This document shows, piece after piece, positions 101 to 20,400 of a stretch of 33,857 bases of DNA. How positions within the stretch are numbered: position 1 is the first letter of the stretch; each line of letters opens with the position of its first letter. The notes under the pieces are model-generated. The model saw only the letters and a list, made by a program, of their open reading frames with translations. It was not told the DNA's origin and searched no databases. Origin of the DNA: a virus (lineage: Duplodnaviria; Caudoviricetes); the IMG/VR virus record IMGVR_UViG_3300026260_000015, positions 1 through 33,857 of that record, one strand, 5' to 3'. The position numbers and the translations under genes are program-made.

Positions 101-458
101 GTTCTCTCTCCTTTTTATATTCGTTTGACATATCCCTCCCACACTTCTGGCTACAAAACTTTGTATTTCTTTTATTTGTAGCATAATATGTCTTTTTACA
201 CATCATACATTTTTGTTTTCTAGCTCCAGGAGCATACTTAGTTATTTGTGAATGAGTTGCAGGTTTTGATTTCGTATGGTTAGGGTGTGTTTTCTTCCCT
301 GAATTTTTATACCTCGAACCACTAAGATTTATATGTGAATCACTTTTATCTAATGCTGAATCATATATTATCTTGACTTCTTCCTTTGAAATTGTTTTAC
401 AATGTTCAAGTTTGTTAGTTTTTTTATTTGGTTTATATATTTTAACTTCGGATAACAT
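78..458 (-). CDS. Basic hypothetical protein with C-terminal zinc finger (CxxC-x14-FCSxxC)
   Basis: 126 aa, Lys-rich. CMMCKKTYYATNKRNTKFCSQKC is the treble-clef-type Zn motif common in small phage DNA-binding proteins. Confidence 0.65.
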   Translation of the reverse strand: MLSEVKIYKPNKKTNKLEHCKTISKEEVKIIYDSALDKSDSHINLSGSRYKNSGKKTHPNHTKSKPATHSQITKYAPGARKQKCMMCKKTYYATNKRNTKFCSQKCGRDMSNEYKKERERVERNKS

Positions 459-785
459 ATGAATTCCTTAGAGTTTAGTTTTACAGATCAAGAGTTTCTT
501 TCTGTCATTAATATGATAATTAAACTAGACGCACCATTAGGAGAAGAGTACATTCCCTTAAAATCTATGGACGAACGGATTGATATGGGTCGGCTAGATA
601 GTTTAAGCATGATCGTATTTTTTGTATGGTTATGCCATATGTTTGGTATTCCGGAATCTAAACTACAGGATTTTGTTAAAAAAGAAAACTTAACTATTCA
701 ATCAATAAAAGAATTTGTTACAGCAGAAGCTACTAAAACTTACACATATGCTGACGCAGAAGAGTATTCTAAAAGATGTATGTAA
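459..785 (+). CDS. Acyl carrier protein (ACP)-like
   Basis: 108 aa. Phosphopantetheine-site motif G-R-L-D-S48-L-S-M, followed by helix II ending in FGI, then an ACP-like TIQSIKEFV C-terminal helix. Adjacent to a ketosynthase. Confidence 0.82.
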   Translation: MNSLEFSFTDQEFLSVINMIIKLDAPLGEEYIPLKSMDERIDMGRLDSLSMIVFFVWLCHMFGIPESKLQDFVKKENLTIQSIKEFVTAEATKTYTYADAEEYSKRCM

Positions 786-1783
786 CCCACACTAATTCAG
801 TATATTCTGAGGATATAACTTTATTAGATCATGTTCCTTATCCTCAATATGGGCACCAAATAGCTAATGGTGGGGGTTTTACTGTTGAACAAGGCATAAA
901 AATTATGCCCGGAGAATTAGTTGATTATGTTTTAAAGGGTAAGCATGGAGCTAGTTCTGGGACCTATCAATTTATTCAATCATTAACACAGCTAAATAAC
1001 TATAAAATAGGGCTAATATTAGCTGGAGGAAATAATATCTGGACGGGGTACTTAACAACCGTTTCTCGTACAGCGCAATATCCTTCGTATAGAGTACCTG
1101 TAATGGGGATTACACAGGTATACGCAGGATATATTGCCAATAAAATTGGGTCTTTTGATTACATATCAACTGATAGTACTAGTTGTATTAGCGGCCACTC
1201 TGCTTGGTATACAGCTTACAATATGTTAGCCTTAAAACGATTAGATGCTGTAGTAGTTATTTCGGTAGATAATGGACTTTCAGAAGATTACTTAACTATA
1301 TTTGGAGAAAATAGATTAACTAAATTAGCCGCCGAGGAAGACGACCCATCTATTACTAAATTTAGATTAGGTCAAGGTTGTAATATATCAGTATTTGAAA
1401 CTACACCAGCACTATGCAGGCATTCAATATTAGCTAAAATTACTGATATGTATATTGCATCTGAATCATATTCTAGTCCCTTGGGGATATCAGAAACTGG
1501 GGAAGGGTATAAAAAAGTTATTAATATGGTAAATACAAATGACATTAATTTTGTTAAAATGCATAGCACGTTTTCTGCGGATAATAGAATTGAAGAAGAA
1601 ATAATTAAAGATAAGTTTGGAGATATTAAATTAATTAACTATAAATTACGTATTGGACACACTATGGGAGCAGCTACTGCTATAGAAACAGCATTGGCAA
1701 TACAGGAAGAATCTGGTAAATTTCTTAGCTTAGGAGCCGGTATGGGTAATGTATATTCATCTGCTGTAGTGGAGATTTTATGA
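776..1783 (+). CDS. Beta-ketoacyl-ACP synthase (FabB/FabF-like condensing enzyme), compact form
   Basis: Catalytic triad in the expected order and context: STSC137ISG, FVKMH263ST (cf. YINAHGT), YK290LRIGH295TMGAA (cf. KSMTGHLLGAA). Also FRLGQG (cf. FVLGEG) and C-terminal SLGAGMGN (cf. SNSFGFGG). Confidence 0.9.
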   Translation: MYVTHTNSVYSEDITLLDHVPYPQYGHQIANGGGFTVEQGIKIMPGELVDYVLKGKHGASSGTYQFIQSLTQLNNYKIGLILAGGNNIWTGYLTTVSRTAQYPSYRVPVMGITQVYAGYIANKIGSFDYISTDSTSCISGHSAWYTAYNMLALKRLDAVVVISVDNGLSEDYLTIFGENRLTKLAAEEDDPSITKFRLGQGCNISVFETTPALCRHSILAKITDMYIASESYSSPLGISETGEGYKKVINMVNTNDINFVKMHSTFSADNRIEEEIIKDKFGDIKLINYKLRIGHTMGAATAIETALAIQEESGKFLSLGAGMGNVYSSAVVEIL

Positions 1784-2124
1784 TATTTACGCATGCTAGT
1801 ATGATACAAGAAGGAGAATCTGCTTTATTTTATAGATTTGATAGATCTTTAAATGGTTATATGATAGCAGGAGTATTTATTGCTCCTAATACGGCAGCTA
1901 AGTTAAACTTTGCTAAGGTATGGAAGTATTTCGTATCTGAAATAGTACAAGCAGATGATATATACTGTTCTATACCTTTAGGAGTAACAAGTTCTATGTT
2001 TGAGAATTATTTAAATTATCATGATACAATAAATGGCTTTAAGATATATAAGGTTGATAATTTTCTTAAAAAGCAATACAGTAGCTATGATAAACATAAA
2101 GAACAAGCTGGGAGCACCACATGA
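1780..2124 (+). CDS. Hypothetical protein, possibly a minimal GNAT-like acyltransferase
   Basis: 114 aa with ATGA overlaps at both ends, so the CDS is well supported. The beta-beta-helix-beta pattern is loosely compatible with a GNAT fold, but there is no clear CoA-binding motif and the function is speculative. Confidence 0.6.
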   Translation: MIFTHASMIQEGESALFYRFDRSLNGYMIAGVFIAPNTAAKLNFAKVWKYFVSEIVQADDIYCSIPLGVTSSMFENYLNYHDTINGFKIYKVDNFLKKQYSSYDKHKEQAGSTT

Positions 2125-4220
2125 GCCACGCAGACGATCCTAATTTAGATACAACTGAAACAGATGCTTCTACTTTAGTTCCTGATTGGAGTAATCCACC
2201 TAGTCTTGCTGATCTTAAACAAGATCATGAATCTGCCCAGGTAGCCCATCAAGTTCATGTTGATGAGGTTGATGCTTGGTTAAGAGTACTTGATGGCGAT
2301 CAGACTATTAATGCTAAAAGAGGACGTTCTAAATTAGTACCTAGATTAGCACGTAGACAAGCAGAATGGCGTTACGCTGCTTTATCAGAACCCTTCCTAT
2401 CCACAGACGATCTATTTAATACTTCTCCTCAAACATTTGAAGATAAAGATTCTGCAGTACAGAATGGTATGTTATTAAACTACCAACTTAACTGCCGCAT
2501 GGATAAAGTATCTTTTATTGATGAGTATGTTAGAACAGCAGTTGATGAGGGCACTGTAGTTGTACGTGTTGGTTGGGAATTTGAAGAAGATAAGCGTAAG
2601 GTCTATAAAGATGTAATGGAGATGCAAGTAGTTGCAGGTCCAGATGGTCAACCTGTTCAACAAGAAATTAAAGTAGGTGAAAAATCATCAATAAAGACTA
2701 TTACTACTAAGAATCAACCTGTATTAACAGTGTGTGATTATAATAATTTAGTATTAGATCCTACTTGTGAAGGGGATATAGAAAAAGCTAATTTTGCTGT
2801 TTATAGCTTTGAAACATCTTTATCAGAACTTAAGAAAGACGGAAGATATAAAAATCTTGATGATATTAATTTTGAAAGTGCTTCAGTATTATCTGAGCCT
2901 GATCATGCAGTTAATACAGATGATGATGCTTTTACATTTCAAGATAAAGCCCGTAAAAAAGTTATTGCTAGAGAATACTGGGGGTTTTGGGATATTGATG
3001 ATACTGGGGAGGTTAAACCTTTTGTAGCTACCTGGGTAGGTGATACTTTTATTAGAATGGAAGAAAATCCTTACCCAGATAAGAAACTCCCTTTTATATT
3101 AGTTCAGTATTTACCTAGACGTAAGAATATTTATGGAGAACCCGATGCAGCTCTTATTGAAGACAATCAAAAAATCGTGGGTGCTGTTACTCGTGGCATT
3201 ATCGACATTATTGGCCGTAGCGCTAGCGGGCAACAAGGTATTAGAAAAGATGCCCTTGATGTAACTAATGCACGTAAATTTGAACGAGGTGAGGATTATA
3301 AGTTTAATGCTAACGTAGATCCTAGACAAGCATTCCATATGGAAGTATATCCAGAGATTCCTAGATCTGCATTAGAAGTATTAAACATGCAGAATAACGA
3401 TGCTGAAGCATTAACAGGCGTTAAAGCATTTACTCAAGGTATTTCAGGGCAAGCATTAGGAGTTACGGCTACTGGTATTAGATCAGCACTTGATGCTACG
3501 TCTAAACGTGAATTGGGTATTTTACGTAGACTCTCTAATGGATTAAATCAGATTGGTCGTAAAGTTATTTCAATGAATTCAGAGTTCCTGGAAGACGAAG
3601 AAATTATTCGTATTACCAATGAAAAGTTTATAGCTATTAATCGAAATGATTTAGGAGGGAAATACGATATTAAGCTTAATATTTCTACTGCTGAAGCTGA
3701 TGAACAAAAAGGTAGTGAACTAGCATTTATGCTACAAACTATGGGTAATACTATGCCTCCAGAAATGAGCCAGATGATATTAGCTGATATCGCTAAATTA
3801 CGTAAGATGCCTGATTTAGCTAAACGCATTGCCGAATACCAACCTCAACCCAATCCATTAGCACAACAAAAAGCACAATTAGAATTAGCATTACTCCAAG
3901 CACAAGTTCAGAATGAAACTGCTAAGGGTCAAGAGAATGCAGTTGATGTTGAGCTTAAGAGTGCCAAGACTCAAACAGAACTTGCTAAAGCACGAAGTAT
4001 GCATAGTGATTCTGATAATAAGGATCTAGACTTTGTTGATAGAGAGTCTGGAGCCAGAGATATGAGAGAAATGGATATGGAAGGCAGAAAGCATGCTCAA
4101 AACATGGAGAGTAAAGAATACGATAGACAAGCTAATATGGAAACAAAGGAGCACGATAGGTTATCTAATCTTGATAAAAGTGCATTTGATCAACTAACTA
4201 AAACACAAGGGGGAGTATGA
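2121..4220 (+). CDS. Portal protein (N4 gp59-like)
   Basis: 699 aa. N4-type portal motifs DWSNPPSLADLKQD, RRQAEWRYAALSEPFL, RMEENPYPD, TATGIRSALDATSKRELGILRRL. Heads the capsid module. Confidence 0.93.
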   Translation: MSHADDPNLDTTETDASTLVPDWSNPPSLADLKQDHESAQVAHQVHVDEVDAWLRVLDGDQTINAKRGRSKLVPRLARRQAEWRYAALSEPFLSTDDLFNTSPQTFEDKDSAVQNGMLLNYQLNCRMDKVSFIDEYVRTAVDEGTVVVRVGWEFEEDKRKVYKDVMEMQVVAGPDGQPVQQEIKVGEKSSIKTITTKNQPVLTVCDYNNLVLDPTCEGDIEKANFAVYSFETSLSELKKDGRYKNLDDINFESASVLSEPDHAVNTDDDAFTFQDKARKKVIAREYWGFWDIDDTGEVKPFVATWVGDTFIRMEENPYPDKKLPFILVQYLPRRKNIYGEPDAALIEDNQKIVGAVTRGIIDIIGRSASGQQGIRKDALDVTNARKFERGEDYKFNANVDPRQAFHMEVYPEIPRSALEVLNMQNNDAEALTGVKAFTQGISGQALGVTATGIRSALDATSKRELGILRRLSNGLNQIGRKVISMNSEFLEDEEIIRITNEKFIAINRNDLGGKYDIKLNISTAEADEQKGSELAFMLQTMGNTMPPEMSQMILADIAKLRKMPDLAKRIAEYQPQPNPLAQQKAQLELALLQAQVQNETAKGQENAVDVELKSAKTQTELAKARSMHSDSDNKDLDFVDRESGARDMREMDMEGRKHAQNMESKEYDRQANMETKEHDRLSNLDKSAFDQLTKTQGGV

Positions 4221-4549
4221 CAGATTTAGAACAAGTTGAAATCCAAATTGAAATGGCTGAAAAGTTAAGAAAATTAAGGGATAATTGTGTTAAATTAACA
4301 GCTAGTGAATCATGGAAGGATGTTATTGGTGAGGGGTATTTTAAAGAAGAAGCAGCTAGGTTAGTTATGGCTAAAAGTTCTAATCTTACTCCTGAACAAA
4401 TGCAGTTAATTGATAACATGCAATATGGTATTGGAGCTTTAGCTAATTATATTGAATCTGTTATGAGACGTGGTGCCGAAATGGATCAAGCTATAGGTGA
4501 ACATGAAGAAACTCGTGAAGAAATTTTAGCTGAGGAGATTAGTGTATGA
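4217..4549 (+). CDS. Conserved hypothetical protein (N4 gp58-like)
   Basis: 110 aa, helical, VIGEGYFKEEAARLV motif. Syntenic between portal and gp57-like. ATGA overlaps on both sides. Confidence 0.8.
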   Translation: MTDLEQVEIQIEMAEKLRKLRDNCVKLTASESWKDVIGEGYFKEEAARLVMAKSSNLTPEQMQLIDNMQYGIGALANYIESVMRRGAEMDQAIGEHEETREEILAEEISV

Positions 4550-5685
4550 CACAAACCTCCTTAGGCTTATCTGATACAGAATTTTTAGAAAAAGATCCTG
4601 CTGAGCTTTTAGCTGAAACAGACGAAAAGCCAGCTGAACAAGAAATTGAATCATCAGATAAAACTGATGAGGATAAGGTTGCTACCTCCGAAGAGGAGGT
4701 AAGTGAAGCACAGGAGCAAACTGAAGCTACACCTGAAGAGAAAGAAGTAAGCCAACCTGAAGGGGATACCCAGAAGGCGCATGAACCTTTCGCTGATAGT
4801 GGTACGACAGAATCTCTTGATACTAGTAACGCAGACTCGACTGATACAGAGGAGGATACTCCGGAAACTACAGAGTTTGATTACGAAAGTGCTTACAAAA
4901 AGGTATCTGAACCTTTCAAGGCCAATGGCATTGATATGCAGGTTAAGAGTCCTGAGGATATTATCCGTCTAATGCAGATGGGTGCTAATTATCAGAAGAA
5001 GATGGGCAAATTAAAGCCCAATATGAAGATAATTAAGATGTTAGAAAACAATGAGCTTCTTGATGAAGCTAAATTGAATAATCTAATTGATTTATCCAAA
5101 AAGGACCCTAAAGCTATTGCTAAGCTTGTAAAAGAAAGTGATGTAGATCCTTTAGAAATCGACAAAGATGCACCCACAGACTACGAACCAACTAATTATT
5201 CTGTTACAGATAAAGAATATAATTTGGATCGTGTACTCGATGACATCAAAGATACCGAAACATTTAATAGAACCATTAATGTTTTAACTAAGGAATGGGA
5301 TACAGAAAGTAGAAGCACTATCTCAGACCAACCTGAAATTATTGGGATTGTTAATGCACATATGGCTAATGGTATTTATGATGAAGTAAACGCATTATTA
5401 CAACAGGAAAAAGCACTAGGTAAACTAGATGGAATTCCTGATGTAGAAGCGTATCGACAAGTTGCAGAATATATGAATAAAAATAATATGTTTAAGCAAC
5501 CTGAAAAACCTGTTGGGAAGTCGAAAGTATCAAGTAAAACTGACGAAAAAGCTGAGGCTGATCGTGATAAAAAACGAAAAGCAGCAGCACCGGTCAAGCA
5601 AGCTACTACACAAAAATCTAAACCTGATGATAACTTTTTAGGTTTATCAGATGAAGATTTTATGAAGAAGTATGCTGTCCGGTAA
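4546..5685 (+). CDS. N4 gp57-like protein (probable scaffolding protein; often annotated tape measure)
   Basis: Acidic disordered N-terminus, PFKANG...LMQMGANYQKKM core, C-terminal LSDEDFMK. Immediately upstream of the major capsid gene. Confidence 0.82.
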   Translation: MTQTSLGLSDTEFLEKDPAELLAETDEKPAEQEIESSDKTDEDKVATSEEEVSEAQEQTEATPEEKEVSQPEGDTQKAHEPFADSGTTESLDTSNADSTDTEEDTPETTEFDYESAYKKVSEPFKANGIDMQVKSPEDIIRLMQMGANYQKKMGKLKPNMKIIKMLENNELLDEAKLNNLIDLSKKDPKAIAKLVKESDVDPLEIDKDAPTDYEPTNYSVTDKEYNLDRVLDDIKDTETFNRTINVLTKEWDTESRSTISDQPEIIGIVNAHMANGIYDEVNALLQQEKALGKLDGIPDVEAYRQVAEYMNKNNMFKQPEKPVGKSKVSSKTDEKAEADRDKKRKAAAPVKQATTQKSKPDDNFLGLSDEDFMKKYAVR

Positions 5686-7120: not shown

Positions 7121-7399
7121 ATGGCTGGTAGTTTAATGGGTAAAGTTGCTAAATTAGCAAAAGGTAAGGGTAAGAAGACACCTCAAAAAGCTAAAAAAGC
7201 TTCAAAAAAATCAAAAAAGATACCAAAAAGACAGCTAAAGAAAAATATGAAAAATTTAGGAAAAAAGCAACCTGAAGTATGGCTTGAACGAGCTGAAGAA
7301 TCAATGATGACAAGTAAGAAAGATATGGACGATATAATAAAAGATCGTAGATCATGGGGCTCAAAAGGTAGAATGAGGAAACATGCTCGTCTTTTATAA
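7121..7399 (+). CDS. Small Lys-rich basic protein
   Basis: 92 aa, AGGAG SD. KGKGKKTPQKAKKASKKSKK tract. Confidence 0.75.
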   Translation: MAGSLMGKVAKLAKGKGKKTPQKAKKASKKSKKIPKRQLKKNMKNLGKKQPEVWLERAEESMMTSKKDMDDIIKDRRSWGSKGRMRKHARLL

Positions 7400-7427
7400 A
7401 GAGTATCAATTTTAAAGGAGAATAGTT

Positions 7428-7766
7428 ATGTGGCAAGTACTACCACATTTAGCGAGACAAGCAGGAAACGCAATCAGAGCAGCTGGGGGAGGAAAAAAAG
7501 GTTTCGACAAAGTTAGAAAAGCACATCCCAGTTGGTTTAAAGACACTGGTAAAAGAACAACAACTAAATTAGATAATAGAACAGGTAAACCAGTATCTGG
7601 ATCAGGTGCAAAGAAATCTGCACCTAAAGCTGCATCTACATCTAGAGGAGGCTGGAACAGTGTACCTGCCAATATTAAAAAGAAACTTCTAGCAGGAAAT
7701 ACTAAAGGAATGAGCCCAGAACAAGTAGCAAAGTACAGAACTCTGTATAAAAATAGAAACCAATAA
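7428..7766 (+). CDS. Small basic Gly/Lys/Arg-rich protein
   Basis: 112 aa, AAGGAG SD, same strand as the operon and fills the gap before the gp55-like gene. Confidence 0.75.
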   Translation: MWQVLPHLARQAGNAIRAAGGGKKGFDKVRKAHPSWFKDTGKRTTTKLDNRTGKPVSGSGAKKSAPKAASTSRGGWNSVPANIKKKLLAGNTKGMSPEQVAKYRTLYKNRNQ

Positions 7767-7778
7767 ATAGGAGGAAGC

Positions 7779-8390
7779 ATGGAAGACACTACATCAGCAG
7801 TTCCCATTAACTCAATGACAGACGAAGAAATTCGACAAGAATTGACAGATAATGGAGTTACGTTACATCATAAAACTGGAACAAAGAAGCTTGCTTCTAC
7901 TCTAGCTGACGTTAGAAATAAAGAGTATAAAGAAGATCCTGAAAAGCCTATTTCTAGTTCTCTCCCTGGATCTACTGAAGCATCTAGAGCTGCGAAAGCA
8001 AAACATTTAGCAGCTATGCAAACTCCAGAAAAAAGAGCTATGAAGCTTACTCGAGTAGTGGTTGTTCCTAATGATTCTAGTATGGCTAATTACCCAGGAC
8101 TTATTTTTACTGTCGGAGCTTCAGGAATTAACAATGGTCAAATGATTAAAAAGTTTGTACCATTTAATAACGAAGAGGGCTGGCATGTTCCACAGATTAT
8201 TCTTGATCAAATTGAAAATGCTCAAATGCAAAAATTTAAAACTGTTACTAGAGCTAATGGTGAAAAAGTATTAGAACCATACAATGCCAAAAAATTTAAT
8301 GTACAAATTTTGCCTCCTCTCAATAAAGAAGAATTAGAAACACTTGCTGCAGCTAATAAAGCTGCAGGTTTTAGCGTAGGAGCTACCTAA
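7779..8390 (+). CDS. N4 gp55-like protein
   Basis: N-terminal HeH-like segment (IRQELTDNGVTLHHKTG), then AMKLTRVVV, KKFVPF...GWHVPQII, ILPPLNKEEL. AGGAGG SD. Syntenic. Confidence 0.82.
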   Translation: MEDTTSAVPINSMTDEEIRQELTDNGVTLHHKTGTKKLASTLADVRNKEYKEDPEKPISSSLPGSTEASRAAKAKHLAAMQTPEKRAMKLTRVVVVPNDSSMANYPGLIFTVGASGINNGQMIKKFVPFNNEEGWHVPQIILDQIENAQMQKFKTVTRANGEKVLEPYNAKKFNVQILPPLNKEELETLAAANKAAGFSVGAT

Positions 8391-8911
8391 TGGCTATAAC
8401 TATTGCTAATTTAACTGCTGGTGTTGCTACAGATGCCAATAATGTAGTAACAGGTACCGGTATATTTGACGATATGATGGAAACTGTTAATGCGCATATG
8501 GCTGCCCAGTTTAATCTAGGTAGAATTACTGGTAGTGATTACGCGACAGTATATTTAACAGCTATACAGGCTACTGTGCAACAAGCTGTAGCTTATACAA
8601 TAGGCGTACAAAAAGGTAACGCTGAGGAATCTCTATTATTTCAAAAAGAGATCACAGAGTTTGCTCAAACTGAACAAGCAACTAAAACAGCCCCTACGGC
8701 TACTAGTGTCGTTGGTAAAGCAAATAGTTTAGTTACTGAACAGGCAAAAGGTTTTCAATGGAATGCAGATCAGAAATACCTTAAAACTCTCTTAGATGCC
8801 TGGGCTATTAATATTTCTACCGCAGGTACAGCTTCTACAGGCGTAAATGCCTTAAACACAACAGGTACAGGTAATATTAATACCCAAATAACTAACGCCG
8901 AGCCTACTTAA
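8390..8911 (+). CDS. Virion structural protein (N4 gp54-like, short form)
   Basis: GTGIFDDMM...HM..QF..GRITGSDYATVYL motif. TAATG coupling to the upstream gene. Confidence 0.8.
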   Translation: MAITIANLTAGVATDANNVVTGTGIFDDMMETVNAHMAAQFNLGRITGSDYATVYLTAIQATVQQAVAYTIGVQKGNAEESLLFQKEITEFAQTEQATKTAPTATSVVGKANSLVTEQAKGFQWNADQKYLKTLLDAWAINISTAGTASTGVNALNTTGTGNINTQITNAEPT

Positions 8912-8925
8912 TAGGAGGGCGTTTA

Positions 8926-11745
8926 ATGGGTTTTATTGCTAATATTTTTTCAGCAATAGTAGATGTTATTGTATCAATAGTCGAAACTGTTATACAAATA
9001 GTTGAGGTAATTATACAAGCCATCATGGTGCTACTTGGTTTTGATGGTGGAAGTACCCAAGTTATTGAATACTTTGAAGTACATAATATCCCTCTGTTTG
9101 AAGATGTAGATAAGAAGAACCCCCTCCTAAATTCACTTATCCGTAGTATTTTAAACAATCAAGATCTTATCAGTAATCTTATTTATCACAGTGTATTTCG
9201 TAGTCTTAAGGGTAATGTACAAGATTTTATGAATTTTATAGATAATGGGAATTATTTCGAAAATTTCCCTACTGTAGAATCCTATATTTTAACTATAGAT
9301 TACACTGAGTTAACAGCTGCATTAAATACTCTCAACGGTGTTCCGTGTACTCCTGAAGGTTCTTATTTAAGAGCATTGTCAAAAGTTGATTGGGCTAAAT
9401 ACTGGCTTCAAGAGAATGCAGGATATAACGTAGGAACTAACACAATAGGAGTAGATCACTCTACAACGAGTACTAGTCCTATTACCCCTGCTACAGATAC
9501 GGTTACAGTAACCCCATCTCTTAATCACTTTGATATTGATATAACTAGTGAAATAGCTACTGAAGATGAAGTATTTGCTGATGAACGATGGCAAGCTGAT
9601 CTTAATACAATTGTTTATAATTCAGGACTGGATACCTATACAGTTGAAGTATACAATGCAGCAACTGTTGGGGGTATAACTAGAACCTACACAGCACCTA
9701 CTAAACCTACTCAATTACACTACGTTTCCTTTTATTACAGAGACAGTGCTCCTTCTAGGCAATACCTATTTATATATCAAGCAGGATCGGGAACATATAC
9801 TGATCTAGATACTATAGAAGAACCTATTGATATAGACGGTGCTACTATTGAAGCACTTCCTTGTGTTCCACTAAGACTAAGTAATTCTAATTACACTACT
9901 TTTGGGACAACTAAAAAGGATCAAATTGAAGACTTACTAGATATAATCCATTTAGATGCTGAAACAGTTCTTGATACGATTTTAGAGGAATCAGGTATTC
10001 CAGGGGGGGATTTAGATCACATTTATGTGAACTTTGGTGTACGAATGTGGGATACCTCTCAGGCAGGAATGTCGTACCTGTTCACCATGTTTGAAAATTT
10101 ATATCCTGCACAGGGAGTTACACAAGGTACTTACAATGATTCCCCAATAGGAGATGACAAACCACAGAATAATATATTAATTACAACAGATGATAATAAA
10201 TTAGCGTACCAATGGTCATATATTACATTCGAACACACTAGCTTAGCTACTATTGATGCAAATAGTGGAAGTGTTGAAAATGGCATATATTATTCAGATA
10301 TGTCTAAATTCGATTCCTCTAATATTTTAGTATATAACTATTACGTTTCTTCTGGAAAAGGGACCTATAACGTAGGTTATAAAGCAGATGATCTGGATGA
10401 AGTACAAGATTTTCTAGACGGCAATGGTGTACCTAATCCAGGTACTACTAGCGGAGAAGCTACTAATTGGTTACAAGTAACTACCCGCCTTTCTTATAAT
10501 AATCCCAGTCCTGTTTTACAAGAAGCAGATGGTTCTACTGCTGATTTAAAACATTTAACCCCTGATTTAGTATATGAAAATAATGGTTCAGGCGTATTAC
10601 GACTAGTCGAATCAGCTTCAGATGAAACAACCGTAGGACAATCAATTACTTACTATTGTTGTAAGCCTTCAGGACTAGATGCCTATACAGTAGTTGCTCC
10701 AATTTCTACTTGTAGAGTTGTTGATGGGTCTAGCGGGCATTTTAGAGTAGTTAAATTTAATCTTGGGAATAAAGGGGATTTAATGGTCCCATTTATTCAT
10801 ACTTTTATCAAAGACTTATCCAATGATAGAGTTAGTAAACTCTTTTTAGCAGGAGCTCACGCATCCATATATGTAGCTCATTATGAAGTTATTGTGCACG
10901 AAGGCATGAGTTTTCTTCAAGCTCTGGTAATTATTGTTATTGTTGTAGTTATAATAGTGTTCGCACCGGAAATTGCAGCTTATTTAGGAGAGACATTAGG
11001 AAGTACTTTAGCAGGTCAGATAGTTACAGCTATAGGAGCAGGGGCATCTTTAGGTACTATTGCAGGTATTATACTTGCAGCATTACCTGGCTTACTTTTT
11101 GATTTCGTTGTTCAAATAGCTATTCAGATGATTATTACAGAAATAGCTGGAGATAATGAAGGACTAGCAATGCTTCTTAATTTAGTTGCTATGGTAGGTA
11201 TGTCCGCATACCAGGGTAATGTTACATATGGATCAGCTCCAAATACAGCACCAGTAGGTAGTTATGGAAATACAGGAGGCTGGCAAATAGGACAGGGAGG
11301 AGGTAGTTTAAATACAATTTCTTCAGGTGGGTCTATAAATCCTCAAGGATTTCAGTTTACTAATATGACATCCTTTAATTTTAGTAATGTTTTAAATCCT
11401 ATGAATCTTACAAAGATTGCTATGGCAGCTTTAAAAGGCATAGGATCTATGTCAAGTATGAGTGTTAATACATTAGCTGAAGAAATGTCTGCAGAAAGAG
11501 CTGCTTGGAATAGAGAAAGACTAGGATTGCAGAGTGAAATCGATGCAATAAAAGATTCTACTGATGTATATTCAGGTAATGATCCTCTCAGAGCTCCTCT
11601 TGGAACAATGAATAAAATGAAAAATACACGATTATCAGGAGAATGGTTTTATAGAGCAACAGTAACTGATTGGCATGCAATGAATACTCTAGCTCCATTC
11701 ACTGATCCATTCGCTTTAGATCACTATAGTTCTATATATGGATAA
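8926..11745 (+). CDS. Large virion protein (N4 gp53-like) with hydrophobic N-terminal helix and C-terminal membrane segments
   Basis: 939 aa, AGGAGG SD. PCVPLR and DLDHIYVNFGV motifs. Several long hydrophobic stretches at about 10907-11210. Syntenic position. Confidence 0.75.
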   Translation: MGFIANIFSAIVDVIVSIVETVIQIVEVIIQAIMVLLGFDGGSTQVIEYFEVHNIPLFEDVDKKNPLLNSLIRSILNNQDLISNLIYHSVFRSLKGNVQDFMNFIDNGNYFENFPTVESYILTIDYTELTAALNTLNGVPCTPEGSYLRALSKVDWAKYWLQENAGYNVGTNTIGVDHSTTSTSPITPATDTVTVTPSLNHFDIDITSEIATEDEVFADERWQADLNTIVYNSGLDTYTVEVYNAATVGGITRTYTAPTKPTQLHYVSFYYRDSAPSRQYLFIYQAGSGTYTDLDTIEEPIDIDGATIEALPCVPLRLSNSNYTTFGTTKKDQIEDLLDIIHLDAETVLDTILEESGIPGGDLDHIYVNFGVRMWDTSQAGMSYLFTMFENLYPAQGVTQGTYNDSPIGDDKPQNNILITTDDNKLAYQWSYITFEHTSLATIDANSGSVENGIYYSDMSKFDSSNILVYNYYVSSGKGTYNVGYKADDLDEVQDFLDGNGVPNPGTTSGEATNWLQVTTRLSYNNPSPVLQEADGSTADLKHLTPDLVYENNGSGVLRLVESASDETTVGQSITYYCCKPSGLDAYTVVAPISTCRVVDGSSGHFRVVKFNLGNKGDLMVPFIHTFIKDLSNDRVSKLFLAGAHASIYVAHYEVIVHEGMSFLQALVIIVIVVVIIVFAPEIAAYLGETLGSTLAGQIVTAIGAGASLGTIAGIILAALPGLLFDFVVQIAIQMIITEIAGDNEGLAMLLNLVAMVGMSAYQGNVTYGSAPNTAPVGSYGNTGGWQIGQGGGSLNTISSGGSINPQGFQFTNMTSFNFSNVLNPMNLTKIAMAALKGIGSMSSMSVNTLAEEMSAERAAWNRERLGLQSEIDAIKDSTDVYSGNDPLRAPLGTMNKMKNTRLSGEWFYRATVTDWHAMNTLAPFTDPFALDHYSSIYG

Positions 11746-11816: not shown

Positions 11817-12395
11817 ATGGCACCCCCATTAACATGGCAACAAAGAAATCCTGGAGAGAATAGAAGTTATAGTGCAGTGAACGATCCAGAGTGGCAAGCT
11901 AAAGCATGGCGACAGTTACAGCAAGGTTCAAGTCCTAGCGTACTTAGTAGAGTGCAAGGAACTGCTGGTATGAGTGATGGAAGTTATCTTAATCCTCAGC
12001 GTTTTGCTAATATATGGAGTCCTCGTAATCAATCACGTTTTAATAGTAATCCAGGTGATCCTGGTTTTGATCCTTTACCAAAAGATAAAGGTTGGCTTGG
12101 TGATCTTGGAGATTGGGCAGGAGGAAATGTTGGAACCATACTTGATGCACTTGGAACAGGGTATGATATATGGCAAAATGAAAGTTTCAAAAAACCTATG
12201 ATGTTAGAAGAACATAAAAGAGCTGGGGAATTGCATGGTATGAATATGGATACATTAAGGTATAATTTAGCAGGCGCAAAAAGAGATGAAGGAAGAAATG
12301 TGCAAAACCAAGTACGTCTTTGGAATAACTTGAGTCGTAAAGAGGGTGAAGCGGAAAGAACCATTGATAATTGGACTCCAACAACTTACGCTTAA
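11817..12395 (+). CDS. Putative ejection/internal virion protein (N4 gp52 position)
   Basis: 192 aa, Gly-rich amphipathic segment GWLGDLGDWAGGNVGTILDALG, no Cys seen. Called mainly from synteny. Confidence 0.65.
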   Translation: MAPPLTWQQRNPGENRSYSAVNDPEWQAKAWRQLQQGSSPSVLSRVQGTAGMSDGSYLNPQRFANIWSPRNQSRFNSNPGDPGFDPLPKDKGWLGDLGDWAGGNVGTILDALGTGYDIWQNESFKKPMMLEEHKRAGELHGMNMDTLRYNLAGAKRDEGRNVQNQVRLWNNLSRKEGEAERTIDNWTPTTYA

Positions 12396-12404
12396 GGATT
12401 TATT

Positions 12405-14369
12405 ATGGCCTATAGAAATGCAGCAAAACAAGTATCTGCAGCAAACCCCGCTGGTACATTAAGCGTATCACGACAAATTCTTGGTGATCTTATAGATCTA
12501 GATGAAAAAAATGCAGCAGGTCTTAAAGGATTTGCTAATAGACAAAAAGAGAGAACTACACAAAATTTACTTGGTGAGATGCAAGCTGTTAATACTGGAA
12601 ATCCTATGCAGGATGAGCAGATACGTCAGACTCTGTTAAAAGACAGAGGTATAGGTCTTTTTGACATGGGAAAAATTAATCCAGCAATGCAAAAATTTAG
12701 AACAGAAGGTCAAGAGGATTATTTAGAAGATGTAAAAGTAAAAAATAAACTTCTAAGCGAAAGCCATAAAAAGATCGAACGAGAACAAGCATTTGATCTT
12801 AATAAACATATGCCTGGAACACCTGAGTATGAACAGGCATTATCAGGAATAACACAATATAATCTTCAGAATGATGTTACAGCTCCAGGAATGACAGCTG
12901 CTTATAAAAATTTAGCTGATCGACACAATTTTGTTCTTTCACCTGAGACTATTACTCAAGGAGTTGGTGTTGAAAGTCTTGGTGAAGATGGCAGTATATT
13001 AGTTAAAGAAAATTTTACCCCAGATAATTACGAGAAAACAGTTCAAATTGCTGAAGCTAATATAAGAGAAAGATTTCCTTTCCTGAAAGATCAAGCAGCA
13101 ATTAGAAGTAAAGCTGAAGCAATGATTAAGAACTCTCGGTATGGTCCTGAGTTTGCACGTCAAGGAGCATACACTGCGGGAGATAGGGAGATAAATACTT
13201 TAGGAAATAATTTAGACGCTTCTATGCTTACGAATAATTCAGTAGCAATTAATAGAGACGTAAATGCATTACTAAGTCATTTCAGAAGAAACAAAACATC
13301 TAAAGAAGTTAAGGAACGCTATACACCGCAAATAATGCAAGCATTAAAGAGTACAGATATAAATCCTGGAAGTGGTTTAGGCGGCAGATTTGGTGAAGCA
13401 AGAACATTATTTAATAGAATAATACCTACGGTTACAAGAACTAGAGCTGAAGATGGGCCTGATTGGAAAAAGGGAGATAAATACGAAGTATCAGGAATGG
13501 ATCAAATTAATAATCTTGTTCGAGGAGGAGAAGTACCTGTTGGGATTCAAGCACGATTTAAAGATGCACTACGTAAAGTGTATAGAGATAAGTTTAACCA
13601 AGGATTACCTGATGAGCTTTTAGATCGACAAATAGATAATATTATTAATGGAGATACAAATTTAAGTACTGCTTTTGCAAGAGGCCAACGAACAGCTCAA
13701 GTTAGAACAGAACATGAGGAAAAGAAAATTAAAGGATTATTAGATTTTAAAGGCCGTCAAATAGATAGACTAATTTCTCTTAGAAAAGAAGAGGGGTTAA
13801 CAAATACTATTAATCGTGAATTATTAGAGAAATGGGAGAAAAAAGGATACTTGAAAGGTGATGTTAGTGGAACGGCACTTATAGGTCCAAATGAAGAATA
13901 CAAACTTGGCGTACAAGTAAGTGAAGTAACTGATAAGCTTAATAATTTCTTCTTAGATGAGGACGGGAACGATCTATTATCCAAGGAAGCACGAGATGCG
14001 TATTTATTAACAGTAAGACGTATGTTAGTAAATAATGTTCATATAGACCCAGATACTATGACTAGATTTCTTGGGGACAAGCCGGATTTTATTCTTACAC
14101 GTAAATGGTCTGATATGGGTGGGGATAATATAAGAAAACTCATACAATTATTTAAACGAAATATACCAGACCATAGAAGATCTGTAAGTTCTAAAGATGG
14201 AAATGCAGCATTTGATATTAAACGGGGAGCTAAAGACTTAGAAGAAGCTTTGGCGTATAAAGCTAAACAATTGAGAGATTGGCAAGCTGCAAATAAAGGA
14301 AAAGCGCAACCTACCATGGGTAATCCTTTTTCTGAAATTATAATGTCATTCATGGCAGCTACAAAGTAA
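12405..14369 (+). CDS. Putative ejection/internal virion protein (N4 gp51 position)
   Basis: 654 aa, helical, no Cys seen, directly upstream of vRNAP. Size and position match N4 gp51. Confidence 0.65.
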   Translation: MAYRNAAKQVSAANPAGTLSVSRQILGDLIDLDEKNAAGLKGFANRQKERTTQNLLGEMQAVNTGNPMQDEQIRQTLLKDRGIGLFDMGKINPAMQKFRTEGQEDYLEDVKVKNKLLSESHKKIEREQAFDLNKHMPGTPEYEQALSGITQYNLQNDVTAPGMTAAYKNLADRHNFVLSPETITQGVGVESLGEDGSILVKENFTPDNYEKTVQIAEANIRERFPFLKDQAAIRSKAEAMIKNSRYGPEFARQGAYTAGDREINTLGNNLDASMLTNNSVAINRDVNALLSHFRRNKTSKEVKERYTPQIMQALKSTDINPGSGLGGRFGEARTLFNRIIPTVTRTRAEDGPDWKKGDKYEVSGMDQINNLVRGGEVPVGIQARFKDALRKVYRDKFNQGLPDELLDRQIDNIINGDTNLSTAFARGQRTAQVRTEHEEKKIKGLLDFKGRQIDRLISLRKEEGLTNTINRELLEKWEKKGYLKGDVSGTALIGPNEEYKLGVQVSEVTDKLNNFFLDEDGNDLLSKEARDAYLLTVRRMLVNNVHIDPDTMTRFLGDKPDFILTRKWSDMGGDNIRKLIQLFKRNIPDHRRSVSSKDGNAAFDIKRGAKDLEEALAYKAKQLRDWQAANKGKAQPTMGNPFSEIIMSFMAATK

Positions 14370-14405: not shown

Positions 14406-17400
14406 ATGGCTAATGGAAACGGTACACTTAATCACGCAGAAACTATACAAGCTTTAACAGAATTTAATAACCCTCCTAATGGTAATGGTCAAAATACAGT
14501 AGTAACTCCTTCTCGGCATGATATATCTAAAGCACGAACTTTAGAGAATAAAGCTCTTGCTATACAAAAGCTTCAACAAGCTGAAACATTAAGACAAGCG
14601 AATGAAGCTTTTAATAAAACCCTATCTACAATACCCCAAATATCCCTACCTGATTCAGGCTTTCAATTTAGAGAAGAACCAAGTACTGAAGAACTACCTA
14701 CTGTAGATCTTCCAACAGCACCTACAAAAGAGGATATGCTGAAGCCTTTAGGTCCACAACCACCAGATCCTGCCTTGGTACAACTAGCTGATCAAGCGGC
14801 ATTAACTAATAATGTTCCTCAAGCCATATTCAAACAATTAATTGAACAAGAATCCTCTTGGAATCCTAGAGCAAAATCAAATGCGGGTGCTATGGGTCTT
14901 GGTCAATTTATGCCAGATACTGCAACTAAAGATATGGGGCTTACTTTAGATGAAGAGGGTGGACCCGGATCTGTTTGGCATCCTGAATCTAATCTGAATG
15001 CTTCCGCAAAATATTTAAGAGCAGGTTTTGATAGATATATTAAACAAGGTTTTTCACCAACTGAAGCATGGAAAATATCTGCTGCAGCTTACAATGCAGG
15101 AATGGGTAATATTACTAACGCAATGAAACGAGTTAGTGGTCCTGTCAAAAGCTGGGAACAAATTGCAGCAGTTTTACCTCAAGTTACAGGAAAAGATAAT
15201 TCTACTCAAACTATTGACTATGTTGATAAGTTAACGGGAAGTATTACGTCTTCTATAACTGATACCGCTGATATAGAACGTCAAAACATTGAGAGAACTA
15301 AACGTCAAGAAGAGCTAGTTCCTGATGAACCTGGAGCATTAGCAAAATTAAGTGACAGCATAACTAATTTTTCAAAGAGTCTTATACAAGCTACTAATAA
15401 AGCTGAGCTTAATATTACTGAATTTGCTAAATCAGTTATAAAAAAACATGGTAAGAAATTAGGTATAAGTTGGGACTCAAATAAACCAGATAATTCTGAA
15501 GGAAATAGAAAAGCAGTTGAGCAATGGGTAGAGAATTATGGACCTGAATTCGGAGTAAGTCTTAAATATCCTGATACTAGTATTGATGCAGAAAAGCAAC
15601 ACGAATTAGCTGTACAAGCTGAGCGTCTATTAGAGTTCAAAAAGAAAATGCAGGACTCAACATTAAATAGACCTCAAATAGTAGCTTTAGGTCATGAATT
15701 AGCTGCTCCAAGTAAAGAACCCGCGAAAAGTCAAATAGGAACTCCTACCGAAAGAGCTGATGCTGCTGATCTAGCTGCTCAAGATAAAGAAAATGATACA
15801 GCTAGACTAAGAGCGCTACAAGATACAGCTAAATTTCAAAGTGATAGAACTATACTTGATGTTGTTGGTGATGCTTATAATAAGGCAGGAGATCTTGCGA
15901 ATAAGGCTTATGATGCCGTAGTCGGGTCATCTTTAGTAGAATCAGAAGAAGAAGCTATTACAAGACAAATAGAACCTCGTAGACCTCCTACCAAAGGTCC
16001 TGATCAAGCCATAGATGTTATAGAACAAAGCATTACTGGAGATACATATTCCGATCCTTTAGATATCGGAGGTATTGATTCAGGTCTTGGTGATCTTAGT
16101 TCGTCTTTAGATTCACTGGATGACGCATTAGGACCTACTACTTTAGAAGGATCTGCTGAAAAAGTAACTAGAGGACCTGAATTTACTGAACCTTCTAAGA
16201 TTAAACGACAACACGGAAGAGTAATTGAATACGAGGATGGTTCTTGGGGAGTAAAAGGATTTGGTGGGTCATCAGATTTAGTAGGACTAAAAAAATATGA
16301 TGCTTTGGCGATAGCTGCTTTTGAAGCTGCAAATTTTAAAGGTGTAAGAGAAGGTGCTCCTCAACCAGGTACAATAGGAGCAGTTACTAATCAAACAATA
16401 GCCAGTCTTATAACTCCTGTTGCAAGTGTATTTCAAGGATTTACAGGTCCAACAACTTTAACAGAATTAGCTGATGATAACGATCTTACCCCTGAAGACG
16501 TACAGCGGTATAAAGCTATTCAAAAAAGCACTACCTTATCTGCTGAACAACAAAGATTTATAAATAGTGAAAACTATAAATTACTTGCTAGGTTAGATTT
16601 AAAAGCTAAAGAAAATCAAAAAGAATCTGATTGGATTGAAGAATTCGCTGAAGAACAAAAAGGTAAATGGCCGGTAAATAGAGAAAATATGGCAGGTGCT
16701 ACTGCAGCCTATAAAGCAATTGCAGAGAGTAAAGGTGCACTTGAAGCTCTTATATATACTTTAAAGAATGATAAATCAGCAATGGCTGCGCATGGTTGGG
16801 ATAGTGTTGGGTACACTATTGCTCTTACTGCTGGTTCTATTCCTGTACAACTAGGTATGTTTGTTGCTTTAGCTAATGGAATGGCTCAAGACAGTATTAG
16901 AGAATGGAAGCAAAAACATAAAGGAAAAGAGCCATCTGCAGAAGTAATTCGAGATATTAAAATGCTATCTGCTGCTCGACTAGTTGTTGAAAAAGCAAGT
17001 GCAGGACTACTAACTAAATATATCGGGCAAATCCCTGGATTAGGAGGAACAGTTATATGGGCTAAGAAGACCCAAGAAGCAATAGCAAAAACAGTTAATC
17101 CTACAGTTCGTGAGTTAAGTGGTTTTACCGGAAAATACGTTATTACACCTACTGCTAAGACTATTAAAGCAATGGGAGCTGAGGGATTGCAAGAATTAAC
17201 TGATGAGTATATTTCAGGTGTAGCACTCAAAGATCCTGAAAATTTAGAAGGTAGATCACGATGGACTGCTAATCCAAGTGATTTAGGTCTAAGTTTTGTT
17301 CTTGGATCGTTTGGAATATTTAGCACAGGTGCTGGAGTAAAAGCCGTTGATCTGACAACTAAAACAGCCATAGGTATTGGTAGTGTAATAACAAGTGAAT

Positions 17401-20400
17401 CAAAAGCAGCACAACATAATCGGTTATGGGCAATAAAACTTGATACAGAAATAGAAAATATAACGAGTAAATTACAAAAAATTGAAAATTACAAGAAGAC
17501 TGATCCAAAAATTGCAAAAGAATTAGAAACTATTAATGCAGAGATAAGAGACCTATCAGATATAGATCGTGAAGGAGCAGAAATAGGACCTAATGGAGAA
17601 TTAGTAACTGATAGTACTTATATTAAAGAAAATTTTTTAGCATTAAGTTTACAAATTGAAAGAGGAGAGCTAACTCCACAAGAAGCTCTTGAACGAGTTG
17701 TATCTGATTTAGAAGCGGAACTGTCTTCTAAAATGGAGACACGAGATAATTTAGCAAGTCAAATACCTAAAGCTTTAACATTTGGAGAAACTGCTGCAGG
17801 TCTGACAGATATAGGAACACTTAAAAGCGCTCTAGCTGATATTAAAGCACTTGAACAAGAAACTGAATTATCTGAGGAACAAGAAGCTCAATTAAGTGGG
17901 CTTCGTAAAGAAGCAGAACGACTTAGAAACAAATTAAAACAACCAGCTAATCCAGAAATAACAGAAACAGAAGTAGCTGGATTAAAAGCTGCTCTTAAAG
18001 AAGTAACAGAATTTAGAGACACTAAAGCTTATGAAGTAAATTGGAGAAATGAGCCAATAAGTCAGCTAAAAGAAAAAACTAAAGAAAAAGTAAAAAAAGA
18101 TAACACTATAACAGATGAAAAATTTGAGGAAGGATTGAAGGGAGTAGGAGTTGTCGATGGTGCAATCACATTAGAAATGAAAGTACCACAAGGAGAAATG
18201 GAAGTTGAAACAGGTGATTTAAATTATGCTAATTTTGACCCATCAGGAGAGTGGAGAGTAGGAGATATTGTTACTATAAAGGGTTCAAAAGATCCTAAGA
18301 TACAAGAAGCTCAAGGATTTACTATAGAATATATATTAGCAGAACAAGTAAGAGATGGAAAAATTCATGTAAAACTTAAAGGACTATCTGAAACTGTTCC
18401 GATAGATCAATTAGAAGAAGTAGTTGAACGTACTGATAGATCACCTGAAACACCAGCAGAGCGTTTAGAAGTATTAAGTAAAAAAGATCTAACTGATGAA
18501 CAAAGAACTAAACTTCTTGCTGCATATGGCAAAGAGATAGATGCTCTTAAGAAAAAGTTAAATATAAAAGTACAGAAGCTGGGGTCTATTGAAAGCTTTG
18601 AGAATATAGATAAAGAATCTGATGATAGTGTAGATAAAAAAGCTAATGATTCTTCTCTTCCTCCAGCTAAACAACAGTTTTATAAAGATGTAGTTGCCCT
18701 CCGTAAAGCAAAAGCTATAAGAGCTCAACAAGAGAGTCTAAATCCTAAATTAAAGACACTAGCAGGAGTACACGGTGAGATTCTTCAAGGTGAATCTAAA
18801 CAGTGGAAAGGCCTATACTCCTACTACACAGATCTAGTAAACGCTTACACAAAATTTAAAGGTGACAAAGTATTACGTGATCAAAGTGTTGATACTATTC
18901 TTTCACGAATGGAGACCCATTCTACTAATTTAAATAAAAAATTAGATAAGTTTAAAGAAGCTAGAAGCATAATGGGCACTGTTCCCCCTGGTAAGGTTGC
19001 TGCTGTTGTCGGTACATCTACAAGAACTGATAGCGGTATGAGGACTATGAGATATAACGTAGTCACAAATATGACAGAAGCAGAAGTTAAAGCAGAGCAA
19101 GATAAAGGTAAATTCATTACACAAATTGATCAAAATTCTGACAGCTTAATTAGGACTCTTGAACAAGAAGCAACATACGGAAATTATATTATGGGAGTAG
19201 TTAGGGGATATGAGAAATCTCCCATGAAAGGACAAGTTTCTGACCAAGAATTAAGCATTGAAAAGCATGAAGAAGTTCTTAGAAAATTAACACAAGCTAG
19301 AGACGGTATTGAAAGAGTTATTAAACCAATTTCAAAAGAAACTATAAAAGGTATTGGTGTTCCTAAAGGTGAGGAAGCTCCTCCTACTGGTGAAGCAGCT
19401 CCGCCTACTCTTGACAAACAATTAGAAGACACTGTAAAGAGGGCTAATGAACTTGCTGATAAAAAAGGAAAAACTAAGGAGGAGTGGAATGAACTTAATA
19501 AACTTGGCATCAAAATGCGAAGTCTCAACGAACAAATCGAAAAACGTGACGCTGAAGGTAGAGAGCCTGAAGGAGAGGATATTCCACCTGAAGGTCCTCC
19601 TCCAGTTTCTGATGAAGCTCCTCCTGTTGTGCGAACGCCTTCTGAACAAGAAGCCAGGGAACAAGGAGAAGCAGATACATTTATAGGTCCCAAACCTTTA
19701 CAGACATTTATTGAGGGAGCTACACAGATCTACAGAAATGTTGTAGGACGAGCATTAGATATAGTTCTGGGATTAGCAGGTGCAACATTCGCTGATTTGA
19801 TTCAAATAGGTCCTCTGAAGAAAGTTAAAGGAATAAACACCCTCCAAGATATCGATTTTAATAATGATAAAACGCTGACTGCTGCACTTATTGATTTAGG
19901 CGTAAAACCAGAAACAGCTAGCGTATTAGTTGGAGCTTTTAATTCATTTAAAGCTAGATACGATAACATAATTCATGATGAGATACGTTTTGATGACGAA
20001 GTATTTTTAGTAGAAGATGGGAAAACAGTATCAGATACTCTTTACACAATTGTAGATGGTGGTCTTCATGTAGAAAAAGGAGGAGCATATAACGTCAAAG
20101 GTGACTACACAAAGATAATAGATGCCGATAAAAATGAGAAGGTAGTTCTTACAAGTGAACTAGTAAATGCCAGAGTTGATGCTCTTAATAAGCCCCTAAG
20201 TCTATTACTCAGAGATGATCCTAAAAATCCTAAGAACACTCAAGGCAGATTACCTGATCAAATAGTATTTACAATGATGTTAAGTAATCTGATATTTAGA
20301 CAACAAACTCCTAATAATAATAGATGGGGAGATAAAGATTTTGCTAAACAATCTTTCTTATTTGGAGGAGATAATAAAACTCTTAATGATACCGAGGAAG

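Follow-up and report, generated by a model that had tools for sequence, protein, structure and literature searches.

Sets of a dedicated acyl carrier protein (ACP), a ketosynthase (KS) and an acyltransferase, as in NodF/NodE/NodA of rhizobia and in systems of the LuxI/FeeM type, are an architecture of small-molecule and glycan acylation. Phages T7 and P22 carry GNAT-like genes (gp13 and gp14, respectively; 'internal virion protein A') before their ejection genes. In bacteria, acyl-ACP-dependent lipidation by CdiC is described as helping the delivery protein CdiA to bind the target envelope (PMC8510554), and lone phage ACPs of Alteromonas phage R22Y (a schitovirus) and Erythrobacter phage R6L have been presented as auxiliary metabolic genes (AMGs; PMC11705849, PMC5463345). 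Here, a cassette consisting of an ACP gene, a KS gene and a third open reading frame (ORF3) is described which directly precedes the portal gene in IMG/VR record IMGVR_UViG_3300026260_000015, a linear stretch of 33,857 nt from a marine N4-like phage, comprising about 47% of a genome (the window). The cassette may represent a phage-owned lipidation module in which ORF3 would acylate the N-terminal leader of the gp53-like tail plug protein from acyl-ACP; in this model, KS would tune the chain, and the ACP would be primed by host enzymes. This proposal is considered plausible, if just short of probable; that some virion protein serves as acyl acceptor is, on an approximate estimate, somewhat probable.

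The cassette resembles the Nod and the CdiC/HlyC systems in logic, which does not amount to an established membership of either. Like NodF/NodE/NodA, it combines a dedicated ACP, a dedicated KS and a candidate N-acyltransferase; the Nod acceptor, in contrast, is a chitin oligomer, and the likeness to ORF3 is one of architecture with no sequence link. With CdiC and the RTX toxin-activating acyltransferases (TAATs) it would share the principle of an acyl-ACP-dependent transferase encoded beside the delivery protein that it lipidates (PMC8510554). According to the same source, TAATs rely on a His/Asp dyad, draw on the ACP of the host and modify Lys residues inside the protein, whereas the cassette brings its own ACP and KS and its candidate substrate is a Lys-free N-terminal leader; a TAAT (HlyC/CdiC) hidden Markov model gave no match to ORF3. 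A search of a literature library that lacks most subscription papers yielded no description of the cassette. New in this analysis are the nested gene content, the swapping of alleles and gp53 as candidate substrate.

The cassette and the genes that follow it are arranged as listed below.

459..785, + strand: ACP, divergent, 108 aa, putative phosphopantetheine site Ser48 (LDSLS)
776..1783, + strand: ketosynthase (KS), short and divergent, FabB/FabF-type, 335 aa
1780..2124, + strand: ORF3, 114 aa, predicted minimal GNAT fold, candidate acyltransferase, core gene of the cassette
2121..4220, + strand: portal, N4-type (phrog_1216, E 2e-227; PF23899), ATGA-coupled to ORF3
4217-4549, + strand: gp58-like (ORF call with PHROG/Pfam matches)
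4546-5685, + strand: gp57-like (ORF call with PHROG/Pfam matches)

A previous interpretation of the window made from its letters alone (the sequence-only reading) held that the three genes overlap one another and the portal gene and that this chain continues downstream. The ORF coordinates bear this out: ACP and KS genes overlap by 10 nt, and ATGA junctions are present at KS/ORF3, ORF3/portal, portal/gp58-like and gp58/gp57-like. The arrangement of cassette and portal is not due to chance, because all 80 viral loci that a search with ORF3 retrieved have this gene directly 5' of the portal gene. Purifying selection acts on each of the three genes, as dN/dS values against five relatives ranged between 0.16 and 0.38 (ACP), 0.13 and 0.18 (KS), and 0.13 and 0.38 (ORF3). 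The PHROGs matched by the three products (28189, 35856 and 28689, respectively) have no known function. Homologue searches yielded 196 KS, 201 ORF3 and 30 ACP clusters, and approximately 600 IMG/VR stretches matched KS patterns. Among 50,697 GenBank phage records, the sole match of KS and ACP was an uncultured spring phage (MW202545), and none was obtained with ORF3; likewise, no cultured schitovirus was matched in tblastn searches with the window's ACP, KS and ORF3.

The KS is very probably an active condensing enzyme, because the four catalytic residues Cys137, His263, Lys290 and His295 are kept in 215 of 215 full-length members of its family. The sequence-only reading had pointed out Ser48 within a DSL motif of the ACP and Cys137, His263 and His295 of the KS; all are present, and so is Lys290. 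The KS thus carries the catalytic residues of ketoacyl-ACP synthases (KAS) of type I/II (thiolase fold, Cys-His-His). Matches to KAS in the PDB (E 6e-6) align the catalytic positions with the sites of the solved enzymes. The match to PF00109 (E 4.6e-4, 20.3 bits) lies under the curated cut-off of 20.8, and that to the FabF equivalog TIGR03150 (E 1e-10) reaches 40.9 bits versus a cut-off of 493.75 and is restricted to residues 107-310; the protein does not qualify as a FabF equivalog. Cassette and host FabF/FabB plus AcpP are thus alike in the Cys-His-His triad with the conserved Lys, in the weak HMM and PDB matches and in the DSL carrier motif. They differ in that the window's KS has 335 aa instead of about 410, belongs to a separate phage clade, carries a C-terminal GAGMGN motif in place of the usual FGFGG loop, is dispensable in the cassette, and is accompanied by no other gene found of type II fatty acid synthesis (FAS II).

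A KS tree was calculated with 77 sequences hand-picked from the fetched loci (quick search, no bootstrap). In this tree, 53 phage-type sequences stand on one side of a branch (SH-aLRT 99) that separates them from 23 cellular enzymes and one viral sequence (locus L236); the window's KS does not nest among cellular FabF/FabB enzymes of FAS II. The cellular sequences originate from a genome scan that covered half of the collection. Only four matches of that scan fell within the phage KS family: three lie on contigs that look like phage, and the fourth on a 2.6-kb contig of unclear origin. For the remaining 76, identity to the query was 36% or less. A recent capture of a host fabF gene is not supported, because the KS belongs to the phage clade and cellular matches outside the family do not exceed 36% identity. 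No bacterial protein-lipidation neighbourhood was seen near the closest cellular KS among the top four genome matches.

These results bear on the view that ACP and KS are a general fatty-acid AMG pair which boosts or retunes membrane lipid synthesis of the host. Phage ACPs have been interpreted in this way (PMC11705849, PMC5463345), and some ACP-KS pairs are found in non-structural regions (loci L106 and L292). The short KS, far under the FabF cut-offs and placed in a phage clade, argues against this role, as do the overlap with the late operon and the fact that the ACP stays with the GNAT where the KS is gone; the view is very improbable. With the lone ACPs of R22Y and R6L the cassette shares the phage-borne carrier protein, and it differs from them in that no KS or GNAT partner is mentioned in the accounts available of those phages (PMC11705849, PMC5463345).

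Phosphopantetheinyl transferase (PPTase), reductase and dehydratase, stated by the sequence-only reading to be absent from the window, were not matched in Pfam and PHROG scans of 24 window proteins, in a record that covers only about 47% of a genome. A FabZ/FabA motif had no match in 370 loci plus the window, with the terminase region lying outside the window and most flanks. A polyketide product, which had also been considered, has no support here: neither a chain-length factor nor tailoring genes of a type II polyketide synthase were found in the window or the neighbourhoods, and a single KS is located between ACP and ORF3.

The product of 459..785 is likely an ACP. Its LDSLS motif (L46-S50) is invariant across 30 aligned sequences and places the serine of D-S-L before helix II, as is characteristic of carrier proteins. 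D-S-(L/F/M) occurs in 215 of 224 matches of the ACP profile, a count that is partly circular because proteins containing DS had served as seeds of the profile. Pfam gave no match to the window's ACP. The best PDB match of the profile is a peptidyl carrier with the DSL aligned (E only 0.1), and a positional homologue in locus L086 matches PF00550 below the cut-off (E 0.0022). An ACP-like gene is located at most two genes upstream of the KS gene in 178 of 182 distinct KS loci; the four loci without such a call are L020 (in which an ACP is in fact present), L236 (whose KS groups with the cellular enzymes), L180 and L185. At the 5' end of the cassette (window 452-466), the ACP gene (start codon at 459) and a divergent minus-strand ORF of 126 aa (458-78) meet start codon to start codon. 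This boundary has zero intergenic space and no evident Shine-Dalgarno sequence; in relatives, the aligned ends are separated by about 50-90 nt.

The third protein had been left without assignment by the sequence-only reading, and structure prediction had been proposed for it. An AlphaFold2 model calculated from a diverse alignment of 65 sequences (pLDDT 85.5, pTM 0.78) points to a minimal GNAT fold, with the core of beta-sheet and central helix present in the predicted structure, and makes ORF3 a candidate acyltransferase. When 48,161 solved chains were searched with this model using VIA, all 50 matches listed were of the GNAT type (Z 5.9-7.7), classed as such by title or, for a few, by known family. 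The GNAT assignment relies on this uniformity of the match list, as no single Z reaches 8. N-terminal acetyltransferases are frequent among the matches listed. The top match is AcrVA5 (PDB 6iuf; Z 7.7, rmsd 3.6, 85 aligned residues, 7% identity), a minimal phage GNAT which like ORF3 lacks the N-terminal GNAT elements and, unlike ORF3, is an anti-CRISPR protein with no ACP partner. Foldseek searches of the PDB yielded mostly GNATs (best match 3bln, E 0.018), and several acetyltransferases were among the matches in a viral library (top E 8e-4). An initial ORF3 model, for which only close homologues had been aligned, reached pLDDT 57 with a best VIA Z of 4.5 and no match in Foldseek; it was replaced by the one described. 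ESM Atlas held no usable match for ORF3 or for the third gene of locus L203, and PDB sequence searches with the ORF3 and A8 profiles returned nothing relevant.

Motif A of GNATs (R/Q-x-x-G-x-G/A) binds CoA. No such pyrophosphate loop was recognized by eye in residues 28-46 of the ORF3 alignment, which would suit an ACP-borne instead of a CoA-bound donor and, equally, a non-catalytic role. In the latter case, ORF3 would be a GNAT-fold assembly chaperone that binds the hydrophobic gp53 leader, with acyl-ACP as ligand or cofactor and no covalent transfer. Such a role would be comparable to that of T7 gp13 and P22 gp14, and one match in the viral library bears the name 'Internal virion protein A' (TM 0.55, E 0.017). 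ORF3 further resembles these proteins as a small GNAT-fold late gene with podophage analogues in the same slot. It differs from them by its position before the portal and by having its own ACP and KS, and it lacks a Pfam match to them, its only PHROG match being phrog_28689 (unknown function). The lack of the N-terminal GNAT helices and, by eye, of motif A is compatible with a chaperone, as is the existence of loci with the GNAT only. AcrVA5, the closest solved fold, is equally truncated and yet an active acetyltransferase, and ORF3 has retained as neighbours a dedicated ACP whose serine is invariant and a KS whose catalytic residues are invariant; a chaperone without transfer is therefore unlikely.

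The three genes, described by the sequence-only reading as one cassette, are not a fixed trio. Among 114 distinct ORF3 genes, 83 follow a KS gene, 27 directly follow an ACP gene, three are truncated and one has neither partner; a 4-nt ACP/ORF3 overlap is present in 21 of the 27 KS-less loci. In a second survey, 80 loci were collected by portal similarity, 69 of which (not deduplicated) had at least 500 nt upstream of the portal. ORF3 preceded the portal in 68 of these 69: 42 had all three genes, nine had KS and ORF3 near a contig end, 11 had ACP and ORF3, and six had ORF3 alone; one had none. As relatives carry ORF3 alone, ACP plus ORF3, or all three genes, ORF3 is the core of the cassette, ACP is tied to it and KS is optional.

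The KS-less ACPs form, with two exceptions, a clade of their own (25 of 27; support 100/100). On the portal tree, the KS-less state required 14 changes versus 15.7 in shuffled data, and a single KS-less clade was rejected (p-AU 1e-7). On the ORF3 tree the KS-less phages were less scattered (nine changes versus 24.4 shuffled; p-AU 0.008). With KS-less phages dispersed over the portal tree and their ACPs grouped together, the simplest reading is that ACP and ACP-plus-KS alleles have been swapped by recombination among close relatives.

Cassettes of like build are found in two further lineages. A second N4-like lineage has, in this order, a gp54-like gene, ACP, KS (about 285 aa), an ORF of about 160 aa and a gp53-like gene, the identities being confirmed by PHROG in L190 and L203. 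The gene order of a podophage lineage is ACP, KS (about 370 aa), an ORF of about 145 aa, a leader-bearing protein of 500-1,000 aa and a phrog_4287 DNA-ejection protein. A leader-bearing protein is thus encoded directly 3' of the third gene in both non-portal lineages. The like build does not imply homology of the third genes. Portal adjacency, which the sequence-only reading had taken as a clue to function, is not the clue, because these lineages place the cassette elsewhere in the tail and ejection blocks, either after the tail tube gene and ahead of the tail plug gene, or upstream of the ejection genes; the link of ORF3 to the portal is specific to the window's clade.

Some loci depart from these layouts. 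One or two genes of a ferritin-like, desaturase-like type (PF02915, E 8e-4; PF03405, E 0.008) come after the ACP-KS pair in L229 (5161-7243), L230 and L232. The KS of these loci form the sister group to the window's KS clade, and the genes possibly constitute a phage acyl-ACP desaturation module. In L106 (5722-7115) and L292 (4378-5791), the pair is located in a replication/recombination region with no adjoining GNAT-sized gene or leader protein. L191 (9796-13870) and L231 show a podophage layout of ACP, KS and an ORF of about 100 aa, followed by a phrog_511 internal virion protein (PHROG assigned for L191) in the absence of the usual leader. In one sub-clade (L248, L252, L260, L270, L274 and L278), a conserved gene for a hydrophobic, membrane-like protein of 112-161 aa abuts the ACP gene or lies just upstream of it.

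The tail and ejection genes of the window that are relevant to the choice of substrate are the following.

8390..8911, + strand: gp54-like tail tube gene (phrog_2050); in another N4-like lineage the cassette comes after the gp54-like gene
8926..11745, + strand: gp53-like tail plug, 939 aa, candidate acyl acceptor (phrog_2220, E 2e-52; tblastn to schitovirus genes)
8926..9039, + strand: gp53 leader, about 38 residues, Gly2, Val/Ile-rich, acidic, amphipathic, no Lys; putative acylation site
11817-14369: gp52/gp51-like ejection proteins

In phage N4, gp54 and gp53 are described as tail tube and tail plug, respectively, and the ejection proteins gp52 and gp51 as inserting into membranes (PMC13434306). 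The window's gp53-like protein begins with MGFIANIFSAIVDVIVSIVETVIQIVEVIIQAIMVLLG, a Lys-free, acidic, amphipathic extension. A leader was scored when residues 2-31 contained at least seven Val/Ile and were net acidic. This rule applied to 30 of 31 portal-type gp53 proteins, to 59 of 68 podophage proteins encoded after the cassette, and to 11 of 16 gp53 proteins of KS-bearing loci without a called ORF3 (among them L085, which is in fact portal-type). None of nine gp53 proteins of cultured, cassette-less schitoviruses and 38 of 970 background proteins complied with it. The leader is present in all three states of gene content; for ORF3 alone, this relies on L469, the single such contig extending to gp53. 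Residue 2 is Gly, Ser or Ala in 31 of 31 portal-type gp53 proteins. Gly2 as a myristoylation-like marker was discarded, as Ser and Ala are common and the cassette-less cultured gp53 proteins begin with MG(L/I)F.

From gene linkage and the co-occurring N-terminal leader we infer virion-protein lipidation. Acyl-ACP transfer to gp53 is favoured because of the predicted GNAT fold, the tie of ACP to the GNAT, the position of the cassette before gp53 in the second N4-like lineage, and the co-occurrence of the leader. In the proposed course of events, a host PPTase would prime Ser48 of the ACP. KS would then load or extend a host-derived acyl chain on the phage ACP, with one decarboxylative condensation setting the chain length or a 3-oxo/3-hydroxy state; KS-less relatives would employ a different ACP type, and GNAT-only relatives a host donor. 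After removal of Met, the exposed alpha-amine of Gly, Ser or Ala of the gp53 leader would be acylated by ORF3. Lipid and amphipathic helix together might anchor the plug in the host envelope at entry, or guide the plug in tail assembly. The sequence-only reading, which had favoured a dedicated acyl-transfer module over a recent capture of host fabF/acpP, agrees with the phage clade of the KS, the ACP upstream in 178 of 182 loci and the predicted acyltransferase fold. Extended to tailed phages at large, a minimal GNAT would N-acylate the amphipathic leader of a tail plug or first-ejected protein, the chain being set by an interchangeable donor, either the host ACP, a private ACP or a private ACP together with a KS; this wider pathway is put forward tentatively.

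The same chemistry might be directed to another virion acceptor, such as the gp52/gp51-like proteins, the virion RNA polymerase (vRNAP), or Lys or Ser residues elsewhere, the gp53 leader being a separate trait of the lineage. The membrane insertion of N4 gp52 and gp51 (PMC13434306), the acylation of internal Lys residues by TAATs (PMC8510554) and the location of the podophage cassette near ejection genes are in line with such an acceptor. By eye, the gp52-like proteins do not share an N-terminal feature, and in both non-portal lineages it is the leader-bearing protein that directly follows the third gene, which makes a different acceptor quite unlikely. Alternatively, the target may be a host component or a small molecule late in infection, either through a change of envelope lipid or lipopolysaccharide that counters superinfection or through an acyl-amide signal. 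ACP, KS and acyltransferase would then act as in small-molecule and glycan acylation, the sister KS group of L229, L230 and L232 adjoins ferritin-like and desaturase-like genes, and in the window's clade the cassette opens the operon and does not adjoin gp53. This possibility is considered rather unlikely given that two other lineages wedge the cassette within tail/ejection blocks, directly before one type of structural gene, and that the leader co-occurs with the cassette.

Several observations speak against lipidation of the gp53 leader by ORF3. The best Z of ORF3 is below 8, its best Foldseek E-value in the PDB is 0.018, and a fold does not prove activity; H5 and D60 are kept in 103 and 105 of 110 sequences, respectively, and no catalytic dyad is evident among the conserved residues. 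Profile-profile comparison of the third-gene families of the three lineages gave no match. GNAT support for the other two families is weak (E 0.1; E 0.0065-0.017) or absent, and a Pfam scan of 30 third-gene products found no GNAT family. The leader rule was drawn by eye with the sequences already in view, and its correlation with the cassette rests on about three lineages. The nine cultured controls are distant relatives whose cassette-less status derives from searches able to miss divergent GNATs; a search for uncultured leaderless gp53 controls found none. Gly2 is not diagnostic, as the cassette-less cultured gp53 proteins also start with Met-Gly. In the window, gp53 is located 6.8 kb downstream of the cassette, and about 10 of 182 ACP-KS loci lack a GNAT-sized neighbour plus leader protein (ferritin-like neighbours, replication regions).

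If true, lipidation of the gp53 leader would be a kind of virion modification that has so far not been described in tailed phages, namely a phage-encoded equivalent of N-terminal acylation which acts on the tail part that meets the host envelope. The small GNAT-like genes before ejection genes in podophages would obtain a testable function. In the wider pathway, the lipid anchor would act as an entry determinant that hundreds of aquatic podophages and schitoviruses can exchange. ACP and ketosynthase genes that are counted as fatty-acid AMGs in viromes could then be morphogenesis genes. The three proteins would make up a host-primed acylation kit which, with its natural KS-plus and KS-minus alleles, is testable in E. 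coli without a cultured phage.

The cassette heads a late module of the Schitoviridae (N4-like) type on the + strand. According to PHROG and Pfam matches it comprises portal, gp58- and gp57-like genes, the major capsid protein, gp55-, gp54- and gp53-like genes, two genes without assignment and the giant vRNAP, in the order of N4. This order is also that of the cultured schitoviruses Pollock and MS02, in which no such cassette is annotated 5' of the portal. In Vibrio phage MS02 (L091, 5985-6535), two small hypothetical ORFs (105 and 78 aa) are located immediately 5' of the portal and do not match the window's ACP or ORF3. In L479 (1079-3778), which has no cassette, the C-terminal part of the portal is fused to an N-terminus labelled by eye as nucleotidyltransferase-like, representing a chimeric assembly or a fusion. 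A promoter scan was uninformative (nine sites versus 11.4 expected). Two small Lys-rich ORFs (92 and 112 aa) without family match lie between the capsid gene and the gp55-like gene (window 7121-7766); the 112-aa ORF is shared by only a few relatives (L040, L049 and L065). The vRNAP (4,664 aa; 14406-28400) is more than 1,000 aa longer than that of N4 and contains an N-terminal SLT transglycosylase domain (PF01464, E 7e-20).

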